From an uncultured Candidatus Saccharibacteria bacterium (lineage in GTDB: Bacteria; Patescibacteriota; Saccharimonadia; Saccharimonadales; JAGQNJ01), in contig CAZBGZ010000004.1 of assembly GCA_964491925.1 (NCBI GenBank), positions 23,529-87,528 of the forward strand: a DNA stretch of 64,000 nt, given 5' to 3'. A program made the position numbers and the translations under genes. Of the stretch, positions 10,337 to 15,707 are shown in pieces. The notes below the pieces were generated by a model that saw nothing but the letters and a program-made list of their open reading frames with translations, did not search any database and had not been told where the DNA came from. Within the stretch, counting starts at the first letter, position 1. Every line of letters begins with the position of its first letter.

Positions 10337-11116
10337 TCAAGCAACACTGGCTAAGAATCTATCGTCAAGGAATTGCACAACTTTTTCGGCCTGATCGGGC
10401 ATTAAAAGTTCCATCGAACGAACGTCGAATTCCCGACGAGCAAAGTTTCTTGCACTTCGTGAGCTATCGGACATTGTTGCCTCAAGTACGAACTGCAACT
10501 CGGTTAACTCCTCAAATGGAACAACCCCCTCTACTCCTTCGTTCATTGCTAGATCAGCAGCCCAAGCACCTGCATGGCTAGCTATATGATCATCGATTTG
10601 GTCAAGCCCGGATGTTGCCCAAATAGTATCGGATTTACCTAGCAAAATTCCACCAGCGGCTCTCATAAGACCCGGGAACTCTGGATTAGCGCCATCTGGG
10701 CTAAAGCTGGACAACGTTTGATCTATTCTTATAGTCTCGGCTTTTCCAAAAGCATTCATTCTATATCGGGGCATATATTGTTTGAAAATTGGGTCAATTT
10801 CTTCAACTCCTAGTCCGGTAGGGGTATGAGGGTCATCGGACCTAATCCCGTTATAAAAATCTAATACAGCGTTACTCTTGGGACCCCTTAAGCCTATGTT
10901 AACCATCGTAAATGGGTTCAGCGTCCTGGATCTATTATTGTGACCAGCAACTATTGCCAACCCCAAATCTCCACGTTTTTTCGCATATCGTGTTTCTCGC
11001 CAACCACCACCGGCGTATATATTCTGCGCTGCTTGTTCTGTGGCTATAGCAACTGATAGAGCTACGACTGGCTCAGTCTCTAGATAACTCGCAAGATCAG
11101 CTTTATGTTTACTCAT
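10337..11116 (-). CDS. hypothetical protein (orphan, 259 aa); weak GlcG/DUF336-like motifs
   Basis: Clean 259-aa ORF with its own promoter. Weak resemblance to GlcG/HbpS family: LGLAIVAGHNN and GGILLGKSDTIWATSGLDQIDDHIASHAG versus the GG-h-P...IGAxGVSG...D motif. Not verified. Confidence 0.6.
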   Translation of the reverse strand: MSKHKADLASYLETEPVVALSVAIATEQAAQNIYAGGGWRETRYAKKRGDLGLAIVAGHNNRSRTLNPFTMVNIGLRGPKSNAVLDFYNGIRSDDPHTPTGLGVEEIDPIFKQYMPRYRMNAFGKAETIRIDQTLSSFSPDGANPEFPGLMRAAGGILLGKSDTIWATSGLDQIDDHIASHAGAWAADLAMNEGVEGVVPFEELTELQFVLEATMSDSSRSARNFARREFDVRSMELLMPDQAEKVVQFLDDRFLASVA

Positions 11117-11123
11117 TGACGTT

Positions 11124-11152
11124 ATTATATCATTTTTTGACCGGAGTGTCTA
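11124..11152 (-). promoter_or_regulatory. promoter TAGACA-17-TATAAT, 7 nt before ATG 11116 (leaderless-type)
   Basis: rc of 11147-11152 = TAGACA (overlaps the nusA TAG stop), 17-nt spacer, rc of 11124-11129 = TATAAT, then 7 nt (aacgtca) to the ATG. No Shine-Dalgarno. Confidence 0.55.
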
Positions 11153-12352
11153 TTCTTCGGTGCCGTGCTCTTCTACGGCGTCAAGCAAGCTGCTTTCTAG
11201 TTCACTTTTTTTCTTCAATTTCTTTGGCTTTTTATCTTCTTTTGGCTGTTCAGCTGTTGGTTGTTTTTCCACGTCAGACGCTTCAACTGGCGCTAACTCG
11301 TCGGGTGTTTGTTTTTGGTCTGATTCGATATCAAGTTCGTACCCCGAAATCTTGCTGGCTAAACGCACGTTTTGCCCGCTTTTACCGATAGCGATACTTA
11401 ACTGGTCTTCTGGAACCACTACTGTGGCTTTGTGCTTGGCTTCGTCGATTCCAACTCTAGTAACTTTTGTAGGGCTAAGAGCATTTGTTATGAATGTTTT
11501 GATATCGTCATCCCATACTACAATGTCGATTTTCTCTTGCTCTCCCACCTCTGACATAACAGCATTAACACGTGTTCCGTGGCCACCGACGAATGTTCCG
11601 ACTGGGTCAACTCCCTGAACAGTACTGTTTACAGCTAGTTTTGTTCGGACACCAGCTTCTCGGGCAATTTTCTTGATCTCTACTGCGCCACTTTCCATCT
11701 CAGGAACTTCATTTCTAAATAGCCATTCGACAAATTCAGTCGAACCACGAGAAACAATTAGTTGTGGACCTCGCTGGCCTCGTTCAACGTCTTTTAGGTA
11801 GACTTTCACCCTTTGTCCCGGGTAGTAATGTTCGCCTTGGATTTGCTCACTAGCCGGCATGATCCCTTGGGCCTTGCCTAGCTCTACGCGCACAAGTCGT
11901 CCTTCTACGCGGGCAACAATTCCATTTAGTACTGTGCCGATTTTGTCTTCGTATTCTGCTAGGATTATTTCACGCTCTGCTTCTCGCAGCCTTTGTAAAA
12001 TAACTTGTTTAGCAGTTTGGGCGGCTACACGGCCAAAACTTTCTACTTTTTCGTGAACTTCGATCTCGTCACCAAGTTTTGCGTTTTTTTTCATAACCTG
12101 TGCATCTTTTAGACTAATGTCGTATTTTGCATCGTGGATTTTTTCAACGACGTCTTTCGTAACGTAAGCGTCCACATCCCCAGTATTGAGGTTCATGGAT
12201 ACGCGGACTTCTTGTTCGCGGTCGCCATAATCACGTCGATATGCAGCCGCTAAAGCTTGTTCTACAGTTTCTTGCACGACTTCTTCGGGCAAGTTTTTTT
12301 CTTCGGCGATTGTCCTTACAGCCAATGCTAGTTGTTTCATGTCTAATTCCAT
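11150..12352 (-). CDS. nusA: transcription termination/antitermination factor NusA
   Basis: 400 aa. NusA N-terminal domain, S1 domain, two KH domains (GKSGQNVRLASKI), acidic/Lys-rich tail. AAGGAG Shine-Dalgarno 7 nt upstream. Confidence 0.93.
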   Translation of the reverse strand: MELDMKQLALAVRTIAEEKNLPEEVVQETVEQALAAAYRRDYGDREQEVRVSMNLNTGDVDAYVTKDVVEKIHDAKYDISLKDAQVMKKNAKLGDEIEVHEKVESFGRVAAQTAKQVILQRLREAEREIILAEYEDKIGTVLNGIVARVEGRLVRVELGKAQGIMPASEQIQGEHYYPGQRVKVYLKDVERGQRGPQLIVSRGSTEFVEWLFRNEVPEMESGAVEIKKIAREAGVRTKLAVNSTVQGVDPVGTFVGGHGTRVNAVMSEVGEQEKIDIVVWDDDIKTFITNALSPTKVTRVGIDEAKHKATVVVPEDQLSIAIGKSGQNVRLASKISGYELDIESDQKQTPDELAPVEASDVEKQPTAEQPKEDKKPKKLKKKSELESSLLDAVEEHGTEE

Positions 12353-12444
12353 AATATTTCTCCTTTATCCTGAGTTTGTCGAAGGATTTACCCTGTGTTA
12401 GTCGAAGGGTTTCCTTAAAATGCGTCAGAATTTTTATTAAAAAA

Positions 12445-12463
12445 TCCGACCAAACTGGCCGGA
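12445..12463 (-). terminator. putative intrinsic terminator inside the nusA upstream region
   Basis: Minus strand CCGGCCAGTTTGGTCGGA hairpin (7 bp, one mismatch) followed by TTTTTTAATAAAAATT. Confidence 0.4.
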
Positions 12464-12568
12464 ATCTCTGACTATATTGTAGCAACCTTCGCCTTATATA
12501 GCAAGGCATGTATGGTGATTTCTTAATACACTTAAAAATTGTTATTTTAAATCTTTTTTGTGACGCCT

Positions 12569-12964
12569 TTATGCACTGTAAAGAATTTCGGTGCGGGTTA
12601 TATCACCCGCTGGTTGCTCTCGTAATCCCCTATCCAGAGGCAAACCATCTACTGCGTTCGCGACATCACTTTCCGTGAACGGTGGACATGGGACAACCCC
12701 TAAGTCAAAATCAGCACCAGAATCAATATCATGTAGAAGGGCTCTCTCTCCGATTTCTACGTAATGTGTGGTTCCCTTGTTCATAAAACCTATCGCAGCC
12801 TTTTGTGAGGCTATCCATACATCTGCGTCTACAGACCTGTCGTGAAAACGGCTTCCGACTCCGTAGCCTGCAACAACTGGCGTAGAGCCTTCCAAAAATG
12901 CTCTGAATTGCCTTTTGATGTCAAGTAACCGAGCTATTTGCCAGCTGGATCTCCGGGGTGCCAT
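12569..12964 (-). CDS. hypothetical protein (orphan, 131 aa); weak nucleotidyltransferase-like G-S...D-x-D pattern
   Basis: 131-aa ORF, looks GC-richer than neighbours by eye. VVAGYGVGSRFHDRSVDADVWIA loosely fits the Pol-beta/MNT hG[GS]-x(n)-DxD signature, but the spacing is only 7 residues. Confidence 0.5.
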   Translation of the reverse strand: MAPRRSSWQIARLLDIKRQFRAFLEGSTPVVAGYGVGSRFHDRSVDADVWIASQKAAIGFMNKGTTHYVEIGERALLHDIDSGADFDLGVVPCPPFTESDVANAVDGLPLDRGLREQPAGDITRTEILYSA

Positions 12965-13068
12965 TTAGGTGCATTCCAAAAAATAAATTCAGCACGCTCT
13001 ACTACTAGCGCCCTTCCTGCCTTCTCGACTAGCTCCACAACATTGGTGCGGTTTTCCATTGTCCTCAT
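12934..13068 (-). CDS. small ORF (44 aa) overlapping the start of the 131-aa ORF by 31 nt
   Basis: MRTMENRTNVVELVEKAGRALVVERAEFIFWNAPKWHPGDPAGK. ATG 13068 lies 8 nt after a perfect TTGACA-17-TATAAT promoter. Below the ORF-track size cutoff. Confidence 0.35.
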   Translation of the reverse strand: MRTMENRTNVVELVEKAGRALVVERAEFIFWNAPKWHPGDPAGK

Positions 13069-13076
13069 TTCACTAA

Positions 13077-13105
13077 ATTATAAACTTTCTTTATGATAGT
13101 GTCAA
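13077..13105 (-). promoter_or_regulatory. perfect consensus promoter TTGACA-17-TATAAT (leaderless-type)
   Basis: rc of 13100-13105 = TTGACA, 17-nt spacer, rc of 13077-13082 = TATAAT, 8 nt to ATG 13068. Confidence 0.6.
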
Positions 13106-13124
13106 TTACTATAACTCCCTCACC

Positions 13125-15707
13125 ATGGTACAATTTACGGATATGAGCAAAAATGTCACTCGATTATTCCAACAGTTCCGACCAGAAAATTACAAACTGG
13201 ATATAAACATTGATAAAAAAACAATGGCGTTTAGTGGCTCGGTAGTAATTCCCGGCAAAAAGGTAGGCAGGCCTAGCAAAAGAATTACCTTTCATCAAAA
13301 AGAGCTAAAAATTACAGGCGCAGTATTAACTAAACACGACAAAAAGAGCGAAACGCCAATAAAAATATCACGTATCAACCTGCACAAAACCTTTAGCGAG
13401 GTCAGATTACACTCCGACGATATGATTTACCCAGGCAAATACACTGTAGTCCTTGAATTCAGTGGCAAAATAACTGATGCCATGAACGGTCTCTACCCCT
13501 CTCGATATAAAGATAATGGCAATAATAAGATTATTTTCGGCACGCAGTTCGAGAGTCACCATGCCCGCGAAGTCTTCCCTTGCATCGATGAGCCAGAGGC
13601 AAAGGCTACATTCGACCTGTCAATAAATTCAGATGCTGGTGATATAGTATTGTCCAATACCCCGACAAAGTCACAAACAAATTCTGGCGGTCTTACAAAG
13701 TCAACTTTTGAGACTACCCCCATTATGCCGACGTATTTACTAGCTTTCGTAGTGGGAGACCTAAAATATAAAGAAGCAAAGACTAATGATGGGGTCGTTA
13801 TTCGTACCTATGCAACGCCAGACAAAGTCAATGAAACAGATTTTGCCCTAGATGTCGCTGTAAAAACACTAGAATTTTACAATCAGTACTTCGACATCCC
13901 TTATCCTCTAGAAAAACTAGACATGGTTGCCTTGCCGGATTTTGCAGCTGGTGCCATGGAAAACTGGGGCTTAGTGACCTACCGCGAGCACTGTTTGCTA
14001 GTAGATCCAAAAAACACTTCCGTGCCCACAAAACAGTACGTTGCTATGGTTGTTGCGCACGAGCTAGCTCATCAGTGGTTCGGCAACCTAGTAACCATGC
14101 GCTGGTGGACAGACTTATGGTTAAACGAAGGCTTTGCTAGCTGGATAGAATATATGGCTGTCGACAAAATATTTCCACAGTGGCAAATGTGGACGCAGTT
14201 TATCACGGACGAGCAGCAAGTCGCCTTAAGGCTAGATGCGCTAGACAATACTCATCCCATACGGGTTCCAGTTCACCATCCTGATGAAATCCGAACTATT
14301 TTTGACACAATCAGCTACGCCAAGGGGGCAAGTGCCATCCATATGTTGCATGACTACCTGGGCCCAGAGAACTTCCGTGACGGACTTCGCCACTACCTCA
14401 AAAAACATTCATACAAAAACACCGAAACCGTTGACCTGTGGCAAGCGCTAGAAGAAGTTTCCAAAAAAGATGTCAAAGGTTTCATGCATGCCTGGACCCG
14501 GCAACCTGGTTTCCCAATGGTAACCGCCTCATTCGAAGGGTCAAAAGCCACCGTTTCACAACAACGATTTTTCCTATCGAAACCAAGCAAAATAGAGAAA
14601 CCCTTACTGTGGCCCATACCACTTCGTGGCGGAAATGGTTTGACTGATGCTGTTCTATCAACAAAAAGCTCTAGTTTTTCACTAAACGGCATTAGTGACG
14701 ATTATTACATCAACAAAAGTCGTAGTGGGTTTTATAGAACATCTTATGACAGCTCTACAACCCAGAAACTTGCCAACTTAATAAGTGCAGGCAAAATAAC
14801 TCCACTCGCAAGATTAGGGTTATTATCAGACAGTTTCGAAGTTGCAAAAGCCGGATTCGGAAGCACAGAGAGTGCACTCTTGCTGTTATCGCATTTTGGC
14901 AATGAAGACAACGCGGCTGTTTGGGATTCTATAGCTAGCGCGGTTGGCGACGTTAAATCAGTAATGGGCAACGATGAAAACATCCGAGAAGCCATGAAAC
15001 CATTTGTACGTTCTATCGCTGCAAAACAGTTCCAACGCTTAGGTTGGCAGCCGAAAAAGGATGAGGATTATTTTGACACCTTACTGCGGTCGACGATTCT
15101 CGGTCTAATGTCTAGCTCCGACGATACTGATGTCATCAAACATTGCCAAAAACTGTTCCAGGGTTCTAAGTCTCCAGAAGATATCCAACCTGATATACGT
15201 AGCATTGTCTGGGGCACTGTCGCCAGGCATGGTGGCAAAAAAGAGTTCGACATATTTATTGATTGGCACAACCAATCGACCAATAGCGAAGTCCGCACAT
15301 CGCTAGCGTCGGCCATAACGGGCTTCAAGGACGTGGATTTGACCAAAGAAGCGCTTGCCATGGTGAAGACCAAAGATGTCCGCAACCAGGACGCAGCCTA
15401 TTGGATTGCTTATGCGCTAATGAATCGTTTTGGCCGAGATGCCGCCTGGCAATGGTTGCAACACAACTGGGACTGGCTAGAAGAAATACTAGGGACCGAC
15501 CTCAGCTTCTCGCGGTTTCCCATCTACGCAGCCCGCGTTTTTACAGGCAAAAAATACTTGAAACAATTTAAAGATTTCTTCGAACCGAAGATGTCACCAT
15601 CTTTAGAGCGATCTATAAAACAAGGTATCGAGATAATACAGTGGCACACCGACTGGTACGACCGCGATCATGCGGTAGTATTAGAATTTCTAAAAAAACA
15701 GAAATAA
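13125..15707 (+). CDS. pepN: M1-family aminopeptidase N
   Basis: 860 aa. GAMENWG exopeptidase motif, HELAHQWFGN...WLNEGFA zinc site, ERAP1-like C-terminal domain. Alternative start ATG 13143, preceded by TGgTACAAT. Confidence 0.93.
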   Translation: MVQFTDMSKNVTRLFQQFRPENYKLDINIDKKTMAFSGSVVIPGKKVGRPSKRITFHQKELKITGAVLTKHDKKSETPIKISRINLHKTFSEVRLHSDDMIYPGKYTVVLEFSGKITDAMNGLYPSRYKDNGNNKIIFGTQFESHHAREVFPCIDEPEAKATFDLSINSDAGDIVLSNTPTKSQTNSGGLTKSTFETTPIMPTYLLAFVVGDLKYKEAKTNDGVVIRTYATPDKVNETDFALDVAVKTLEFYNQYFDIPYPLEKLDMVALPDFAAGAMENWGLVTYREHCLLVDPKNTSVPTKQYVAMVVAHELAHQWFGNLVTMRWWTDLWLNEGFASWIEYMAVDKIFPQWQMWTQFITDEQQVALRLDALDNTHPIRVPVHHPDEIRTIFDTISYAKGASAIHMLHDYLGPENFRDGLRHYLKKHSYKNTETVDLWQALEEVSKKDVKGFMHAWTRQPGFPMVTASFEGSKATVSQQRFFLSKPSKIEKPLLWPIPLRGGNGLTDAVLSTKSSSFSLNGISDDYYINKSRSGFYRTSYDSSTTQKLANLISAGKITPLARLGLLSDSFEVAKAGFGSTESALLLLSHFGNEDNAAVWDSIASAVGDVKSVMGNDENIREAMKPFVRSIAAKQFQRLGWQPKKDEDYFDTLLRSTILGLMSSSDDTDVIKHCQKLFQGSKSPEDIQPDIRSIVWGTVARHGGKKEFDIFIDWHNQSTNSEVRTSLASAITGFKDVDLTKEALAMVKTKDVRNQDAAYWIAYALMNRFGRDAAWQWLQHNWDWLEEILGTDLSFSRFPIYAARVFTGKKYLKQFKDFFEPKMSPSLERSIKQGIEIIQWHTDWYDRDHAVVLEFLKKQK

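Follow-up and report, generated by a model that had tools for sequence, protein, structure and literature searches.

Two small open reading frames (ORFs) with a short overlap and one strong promoter bear a superficial likeness to type II toxin-antitoxin modules, and such a pair is found in the Saccharibacteria (TM7) genome considered here. A comparable picture is presented by frameshift-disrupted accessory genes, or recent pseudogenes, of reduced genomes: an indel of one base, two overlapping ORFs in different frames, homologues that are intact single ORFs and two halves that still look like coding sequence. Two further systems need to be considered, namely the programmed -1 frameshift of dnaX type and, for the DNA lying just downstream, the rimP-leader attenuator, which has been described for rimP-nusA-infB operons and is proposed to mediate NusA feedback (PMC2965389). 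We conclude below that the locus very probably belongs with the disrupted accessory genes, ORF1 and ORF2 being the two halves of a single gene of 166 codons from which one base was lost at about position 12940. The analysis covered a stretch of 64,000 nt, called hereafter the window, and the features that matter for the argument are the following.

11150 to 12352, minus strand: nusA, conserved flank
12439 to 12463, minus strand: nusA-leader hairpin (12463-12445) followed by six T, TCCGGCCAGTTTGGTCGGA TTTTTT
12476 to 12504, minus strand: ancestral nusA promoter, TTGCTA-17-TACAAT with TG, followed after 12 nt by the leader hairpin
12569 to 12940, minus strand: putative C-terminal 122-123 codons and stop of the ancestral gene, in the ORF2 frame (predicted helix 2, four long beta strands and C-terminal helices)
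12934 to 12942, minus strand: probable frameshift site, GCT GGC [N]CAA ATA, now GCTGGCAAATAG, with 1 base missing
12941 to 12964, minus strand: probably spurious start of ORF2, ATG and MAPRRSSW, an out-of-frame reading of the native KWHPGDPAG
12940 to 13068, minus strand: putative N-terminal 43 codons of the ancestral gene, in the ORF1 frame (predicted helix 1 and the conserved HPGDPAG loop)
13077 to 13105, minus strand: sigma-70-type promoter TTGACA-17-TATAAT, 12/12 matches, attributed to the accessory gene
13125 to 15707, plus strand: pepN (M1 aminopeptidase), conserved divergent flank

The spacer between pepN and nusA

With the NusA protein of the window as the query, 80 loci of Saccharibacteria (TM7) were retrieved at 66-87% identity, and the spacer counts cover the 76 loci that also hold the start of pepN. 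The two genes are adjacent and divergent in 62 of these 76, with a spacer of 77-190 bp (median ~122 bp) that contrasts with the 772 bp found in the window; the claim that the locus interrupts the stretch between pepN and nusA is thereby borne out. Between pepN and the nusA promoter the window has about 600 bp of additional, lineage-specific DNA that the same 62 loci lack, and the accessory gene is located within it. Expanded spacers, ranging from 244 to 3945 bp and mutually unrelated in content, characterize the other 14 loci, which are the window's own (L001) and those of 13 relatives (L002, L011, L018, L024, L025, L027, L038, L040, L068, L069, L071, L072 and L075). In all 14, the added DNA is located to the pepN side of the nusA promoter, and unrelated extra genes occur at this spot in roughly one relative out of five. 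The spacer of L002, for example, encodes a 268-aa protein whose sequence includes the Tat-like signal RRGFLKG, that of L069 contains a 563-aa ORF and that of L038 extends to ~3.9 kb. Around the extra DNA of the window, the search for repeats gave only short matches at chance level, with neither a target-site duplication nor terminal inverted repeats.

The promoter within this extra DNA stands as originally described. It is the only perfect TTGACA-17-TATAAT site in the 64-kb window, where shuffles lead one to expect 0.01, and the spacer between its -10 box and the ATG at 13068, read in the sequence, is the 8 nt TTAGTGAA. This ATG is not preceded by a Shine-Dalgarno (SD) sequence, and the combination of the short distance with the missing SD suggests that the consensus promoter belongs to the accessory gene and that its transcript is leaderless or nearly so. 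Promoters of consensus strength are not unusual in the lineage, for the nusA promoters of five relatives also match at 12/12 positions. ORF1 (13068-12934, 44 aa) and ORF2 (12964-12569, 131 aa), both on the minus strand, have the coordinates previously given for them, overlap by 31 nt in different frames and are arranged so that a TAA directly precedes the ATG of ORF2.

As regards base composition, the locus had been judged by eye to be richer in GC than its surroundings, and windowed values agree: GC is 0.48 over 12569-13068 against a window mean of 0.43, placing the segment at the 97th percentile of 500-nt windows. It is codon positions 1 and 2 that carry the excess (0.61/0.45 vs 0.53/0.38), GC3 being normal (0.39 vs 0.40), which speaks for an effect of amino-acid composition rather than for a foreign-DNA signature. 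A foreign origin of the accessory gene, considered on the basis of GC, was consequently rejected, both GC3 and codon usage being native-like.

On the opposite strand, the pepN ATG at 13143 is preceded by TACAAT and 8 nt without an SD (13100-13145), and the alignment with the pepN of relatives begins at residue 7 of the window ORF, which corresponds to this same ATG. Hence pepN may also be leaderless, in which case its promoter would overlap the promoter and start region of the accessory gene.

Two ORFs and a probable missing base

The layout of the locus poses a question: Are ORF1 and ORF2 two genes that truly overlap, or are they the remains of one? The original prediction had left both answers standing, a two-gene module of toxin-antitoxin-like architecture on one side and a gene broken by a frameshift inside 12934-12964 on the other, and it had named an uninterrupted version in relatives as the outcome that speaks against two genes. 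Two such versions exist. An exhaustive phmmer search with ORF2 alone as the query was the source of these two distant relatives, P0002 (160 aa, E 2e-12, 38% identity) and P0003 (189 aa, E 3.6e-05), each of which is a single intact ORF. Their alignment to ORF2 starts only at residue 8-9 of the latter, and each relative begins about 34 residues ahead of this onset with a segment that matches ORF1 in register. Frame translations indicate that ORF1 ends with KWHPGDPAG, the single wrong codon AAA (Lys) and a premature TAG at 12936-12934, while the ORF2 frame goes on with QIARL; the equivalent segments are KKHPGDPAAQIASL in P0002 and NNPGNPASQLEHF in P0003. The N-terminal match of KWHPGDPAG with KKHPGDPAA is thus followed by that of QIARL with QIASL in the ORF2 frame, the relatives' alignment switching from one frame to the other between PAG and QIA.

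The first half of the gene can also be evaluated separately. ORF1 alone forms an ungapped alignment of 42 residues with residues 2-43 of P0002 (E 4e-05), a score that 0 of 2000 shuffles reach; against P0003 it falls in the same register, in an alignment that is not significant on its own (E 0.11, reached by 243 of 2000 shuffles). At the DNA level, alignment with the two intact genes leaves a single 1-nt gap in the window, with GATCCAGCTG-GCAAATAGCT placed against GATCCAGCTGCGCAAATTGCT in the P0002 gene, and the repaired protein of 166 aa aligns end to end with both relatives. Judging from these alignments, the presumed 1-nt loss falls in the loop coding for the most conserved motif of the family, HPGDPA-Q.

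Under the alternative of a toxin-antitoxin-like module, the 44-aa and 131-aa products would be made separately and act on each other. It has in its favor the presence of two ORFs under one strong promoter, their 31-nt overlap and the stop located just ahead of the second ATG; however, both relatives are single ORFs that span the two parts, no relative with two genes was found, and the features of the second start are explained by a shift of reading frame, given that the TAA-ATG opening ORF2 results from a one-base displacement in the reading of CCT AAA TGG, which in frame encodes Pro-Lys-Trp. The ATG of ORF2 has no SD, and its first eight codons are the off-frame version of the conserved motif. 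Moreover, neither Pfam and NCBIfam (E up to 10) nor PADLOC (E up to 1) returned a match, and the helices encoded by ORF1 and ORF2 form one domain in the predicted model presented below. The locus therefore differs from type II modules in that its ORFs are parts of one domain, show no homology to toxin, antitoxin or defence families and have relatives that are single genes. We consider the two-gene reading very improbable, and this half of the original prediction is abandoned in favor of the single gene split by a frameshift.

The same reading receives support from codon usage, which had been proposed as a check. A score trained on the 34 long genes of the window gives 0.246 for ORF1 and 0.218 for ORF2, each in its own frame, compared with 0.233 +/- 0.058 for in-frame genes and -0.544 off frame, so that both ORFs score as in-frame coding sequence. 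No second lesion was found in the gene and, together with the intact codon usage of both halves, this indicates either that the break is recent or that it is an error at the level of the reads.

Before these two possibilities are weighed, it needs to be asked whether the present sequence could still yield the full-length protein by recoding, be it programmed -1 ribosomal frameshifting or some other mechanism. The shift needed is indeed -1, and the in-frame TAG that follows directly could pause ribosomes. The site itself, GCU GGC AAA UAG, lacks a slippery heptamer of the form X XXY YYZ, and slippage of the Lys-tRNA from AAA to CAA would be mismatched at the first position. The 96-nt segment that begins at the shift site (12945-12850) is not more strongly structured than its shuffles, its minimum free energy (MFE) of -27.6 comparing with -24.1 +/- 3.2 (z = -1.08); an A/T run that might allow transcriptional slippage is absent, and neither homologue needs a frameshift, both being uninterrupted. 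Without a slippery heptamer, a stimulatory downstream structure or conservation of the shift in homologues, the locus is unlike dnaX-type frameshifting in every one of these respects, and recoding has in our opinion only a very slight chance of being correct.

There remains the possibility that the gene is intact in the organism and that the missing base reflects a sequencing or assembly error in the metagenome-assembled genome (MAG). The site as assembled reads GCTGGCAAATAG, and with one extra base it would read GCTGGNCAAATAG. The MAG derives from a single run, and the lack of other damage, with codon usage fully kept in both halves, is what an error would produce, as would a very recent mutation. 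Against an error, the NCBI MAG contig and a separately assembled Logan contig (SRR14932609) are identical over 10,396 bases; since both were built from the same reads, this concordance excludes an assembler artefact and leaves a read-level error untouched. The site, moreover, does not lie in a homopolymer (GGC/AAA, with runs of at most 3), and the window, of which 95% is coding, contains long intact genes and no other gene that is evidently split. We regard an error as unlikely, though it deserves a real share of the probability, and give clear preference to a genuine lesion. An unbroken allele of this gene was not found in the metagenome and viral contig collections. It would be more speculative to propose that the one-base break constitutes a reversible on/off state of the population instead of a dead gene. 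On the preferred reading of a split gene, the event as a whole is essentially ordinary, namely a one-base break in an unusually rare and uncharacterized accessory gene.

The predicted protein and its family

Structure prediction for the 131-aa protein and for the fusion of both parts, another check that had been suggested, favors the fused form. The repaired 166-aa protein, modeled with an alignment of three sequences, has a mean pLDDT of 77.2 and a pTM of 0.68, while the single-sequence model of ORF2 alone is uninformative (pLDDT 38.2, pTM 0.32); the comparison is not like for like, given the different inputs, and should be taken as suggestive rather than strict. In the repaired model, an ORF1-encoded helix (residues 5-36) is followed by the loop HPGDPAG and by an ORF2-encoded helix (residues 41-60), after which come four long antiparallel strands and short C-terminal helices. 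The model shows a protein predicted with confidence to fold as one soluble alpha+beta domain, in which a helical hairpin packs on a four-stranded antiparallel sheet, and the position of the frameshift corresponds to the loop between the two helices.

Fold searches with the repaired model against the PDB and viral structures (BFVD) produced no convincing match. The best PDB match, 6p7l, has an E value of 0.022 with TM 0.20-0.23 and an rmsd of 15 A; the viral match with the lowest E value (1.3e-4) has TMq/TMt of 0.23/0.31. The top full-length matches do not exceed a TM of 0.31, the higher target-normalized scores found further down being short partial alignments. Most of the weak PDB matches are alpha+beta proteins of the NTF2-like or SnoaL-like type, including Aln2 (6p7l), ActVI-ORFA (5bka) and the CaMKII hub, with which the model shares N-terminal helices followed by an antiparallel beta-meander. 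The differences are considerable, with E values of at least 0.02, TM of 0.20-0.25 and rmsd of 10-16 A, and consequently this resemblance of the predicted fold is a lead and not an assignment.

The 131-aa product had also been said to contain a loose G-S...D-x-D pattern, which would suggest a nucleotidyltransferase of Pol-beta type. The residues are present as GVGS...DAD, and the acidic pair is conserved in charge among the family members (DAD, EGD, DGE). Yet in the relatives the position of the G-S Ser is occupied by Ala or Lys, the acidic pair follows G-S at a spacing of 5-7 residues instead of the 9-13 of the pattern hG[GS]-x9-13-Dh[DE]h, and both motifs fall within one beta-hairpin of the predicted model, no helix separating the two. 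A match to a nucleotidyltransferase was found neither in Pfam and NCBIfam, even at E up to 10, nor among the top 50 fold matches in the PDB or in viral structures, nor in the PDB sequence-profile search. The assignment is thus extremely improbable; what survives of the pattern is the acidic pair, kept in charge only, which may matter in some way.

From the sequences retrieved, the gene appears to belong to a very rare family of three members, which is uncharacterized. ORF1, ORF2 and a provisional fusion of the two had no match in Pfam or NCBIfam (E up to 10), and PHROGs, PADLOC and PDB sequence profiles, queried with the family alignment, returned no hit with an E value under 0.19. A word-indexed search of 5.8 billion protein clusters returned only the protein itself when queried with the fusion, and only the same three proteins when queried with the profile of three sequences. 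Likewise, when the 80 related Saccharibacteria nusA loci were searched by tblastn with ORF1, ORF2 and the repaired protein, only the window's own copy was recovered; metagenome contigs yielded nothing, either with the family profile or with a DNA pattern that crosses the frameshift and allows a gap of variable length, and a scan of viral contigs was equally negative. The fact that the word-indexed search came back empty while the exhaustive HMM search found the two deciding relatives implies that orphan calls in the genomes of candidate phyla depend heavily on the sensitivity of the search.

The two relatives occupy unrelated contexts, which fits a mobile accessory gene. P0002 lies on a 3.5-kb contig among unannotated small genes and P0003 on a 444-kb contig, 140 nt downstream of a Fic-domain gene; the latter arrangement, on the same strand and with a Fic_N/Fic-domain gene, is seen in two independent contigs (L083, 6710-8570; L084, 322-2182). 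The adjacency, which may point to a functional link, is not shared by the other two members of the family. The DNA flanking the relatives' genes has nothing in common with the locus of the window, and comparison of their neighbor genes with Saccharibacteria sequence yielded no close match, only a PNPOx-like protein of 33% identity. In the P0002 and P0003 genes, which likewise lack an SD, a TATAGT box precedes the ATG by 9-14 nt; all three family members thus combine a missing SD with a TATAAT or TATAGT box at a distance of 8-14 nt from the ATG.

These observations would be compatible with a broader proposal, which we put forward only tentatively and consider doubtful: The three proteins would represent a new small alpha+beta class, encoded by leaderless and self-promoted single-gene cargo that travels among variable sites in ultra-small genomes and that in the present case feeds, from a promoter of consensus strength, into an autoregulated nusA leader. 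If this were true, the gain or loss of cargo could alter the expression of nusA.

Predicted transcripts of the probably broken gene and the nusA leader

As read from the sequence, transcription from the consensus promoter would start at the ATG at 13068 or within 1-2 nt of it, and translation from this ATG would produce 43 native residues plus Lys before stopping at the TAG. The remaining 122-123 native codons are open in the -1 frame and would be reachable only via the accidental ATG of ORF2; because this ATG has no SD, the downstream native codons would probably be translated poorly or not at all. Between the stop of the gene (12569) and the nusA leader hairpin no terminator-like site was found, which makes the hairpin and U-tract at 12463-12439 the first such signal for transcripts from the promoter; these should reach it and either stop there or add to the expression of nusA.

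This hairpin belongs to a compact architecture, common to the short pepN-nusA spacers of relatives, in which a strong sigma-70-type promoter is followed after 8-15 nt by a GC-rich hairpin with its U-tract, an SD and nusA. The nusA promoter of relatives lies at this same distance of 8-15 nt before the hairpin, and one of them (L009) has the same TTGCTACAAT as the window. At least 78 of 81 loci have the hairpin, and its pairing holds in 99.6% of cells over 32 distinct sequences, a value for which sliding of the partner columns gives no more than 49%; compensatory changes are seen in both outer pairs (G-C/U-A and C-G/U-A), while the CGGCC...GGTCG core is invariant. Between hairpin and SD, the 5' UTR of nusA in the window contains a tandem direct repeat of 23 nt (12364-12409, 83% identical), each unit of which has a small palindrome (CCCT...AGGG and TCCT...AGGA), and the nusA 5' UTRs of relatives are much shorter. 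Directly downstream of nusA there is a 259-aa ORF (10337-11116, minus strand) without a Pfam match, followed by clpB; infB does not follow nusA here, unlike in the classical operon.

The main value of this analysis is one of correction, for the apparent two-gene module behind a perfect promoter is, on the reading that we find very probable, a single gene minus one base, and the locus should not be reported as a toxin-antitoxin system or as a nucleotidyltransferase. Two by-products lend themselves better to further use, namely the conserved hairpin of the nusA leader and the pepN-nusA spacer as a variable site for cargo, and each may deserve a study of its own.

In concluding the comparison with known systems, the hairpin appears to be analogous to the rimP-leader attenuator and distinct from it. 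Both are short terminator hairpins with a U-tract, placed in a 5' leader just ahead of the nusA operon, and both combine a strongly conserved stem sequence with the lack of a visible antiterminator (PMC2965389). The stems differ, however, the attenuator having GGGc...gCCC where the Saccharibacteria hairpin has CGGCC...GGTCG; an Rfam scan of 12200-13300 at E up to 1 gave no match, and no rimP lies between hairpin and nusA in the Saccharibacteria loci. The accessory gene itself compares best with the frameshift-disrupted genes of reduced genomes, from which it differs in its parent family, which is uncharacterized and extremely rare, with three clusters among 5.8 billion.
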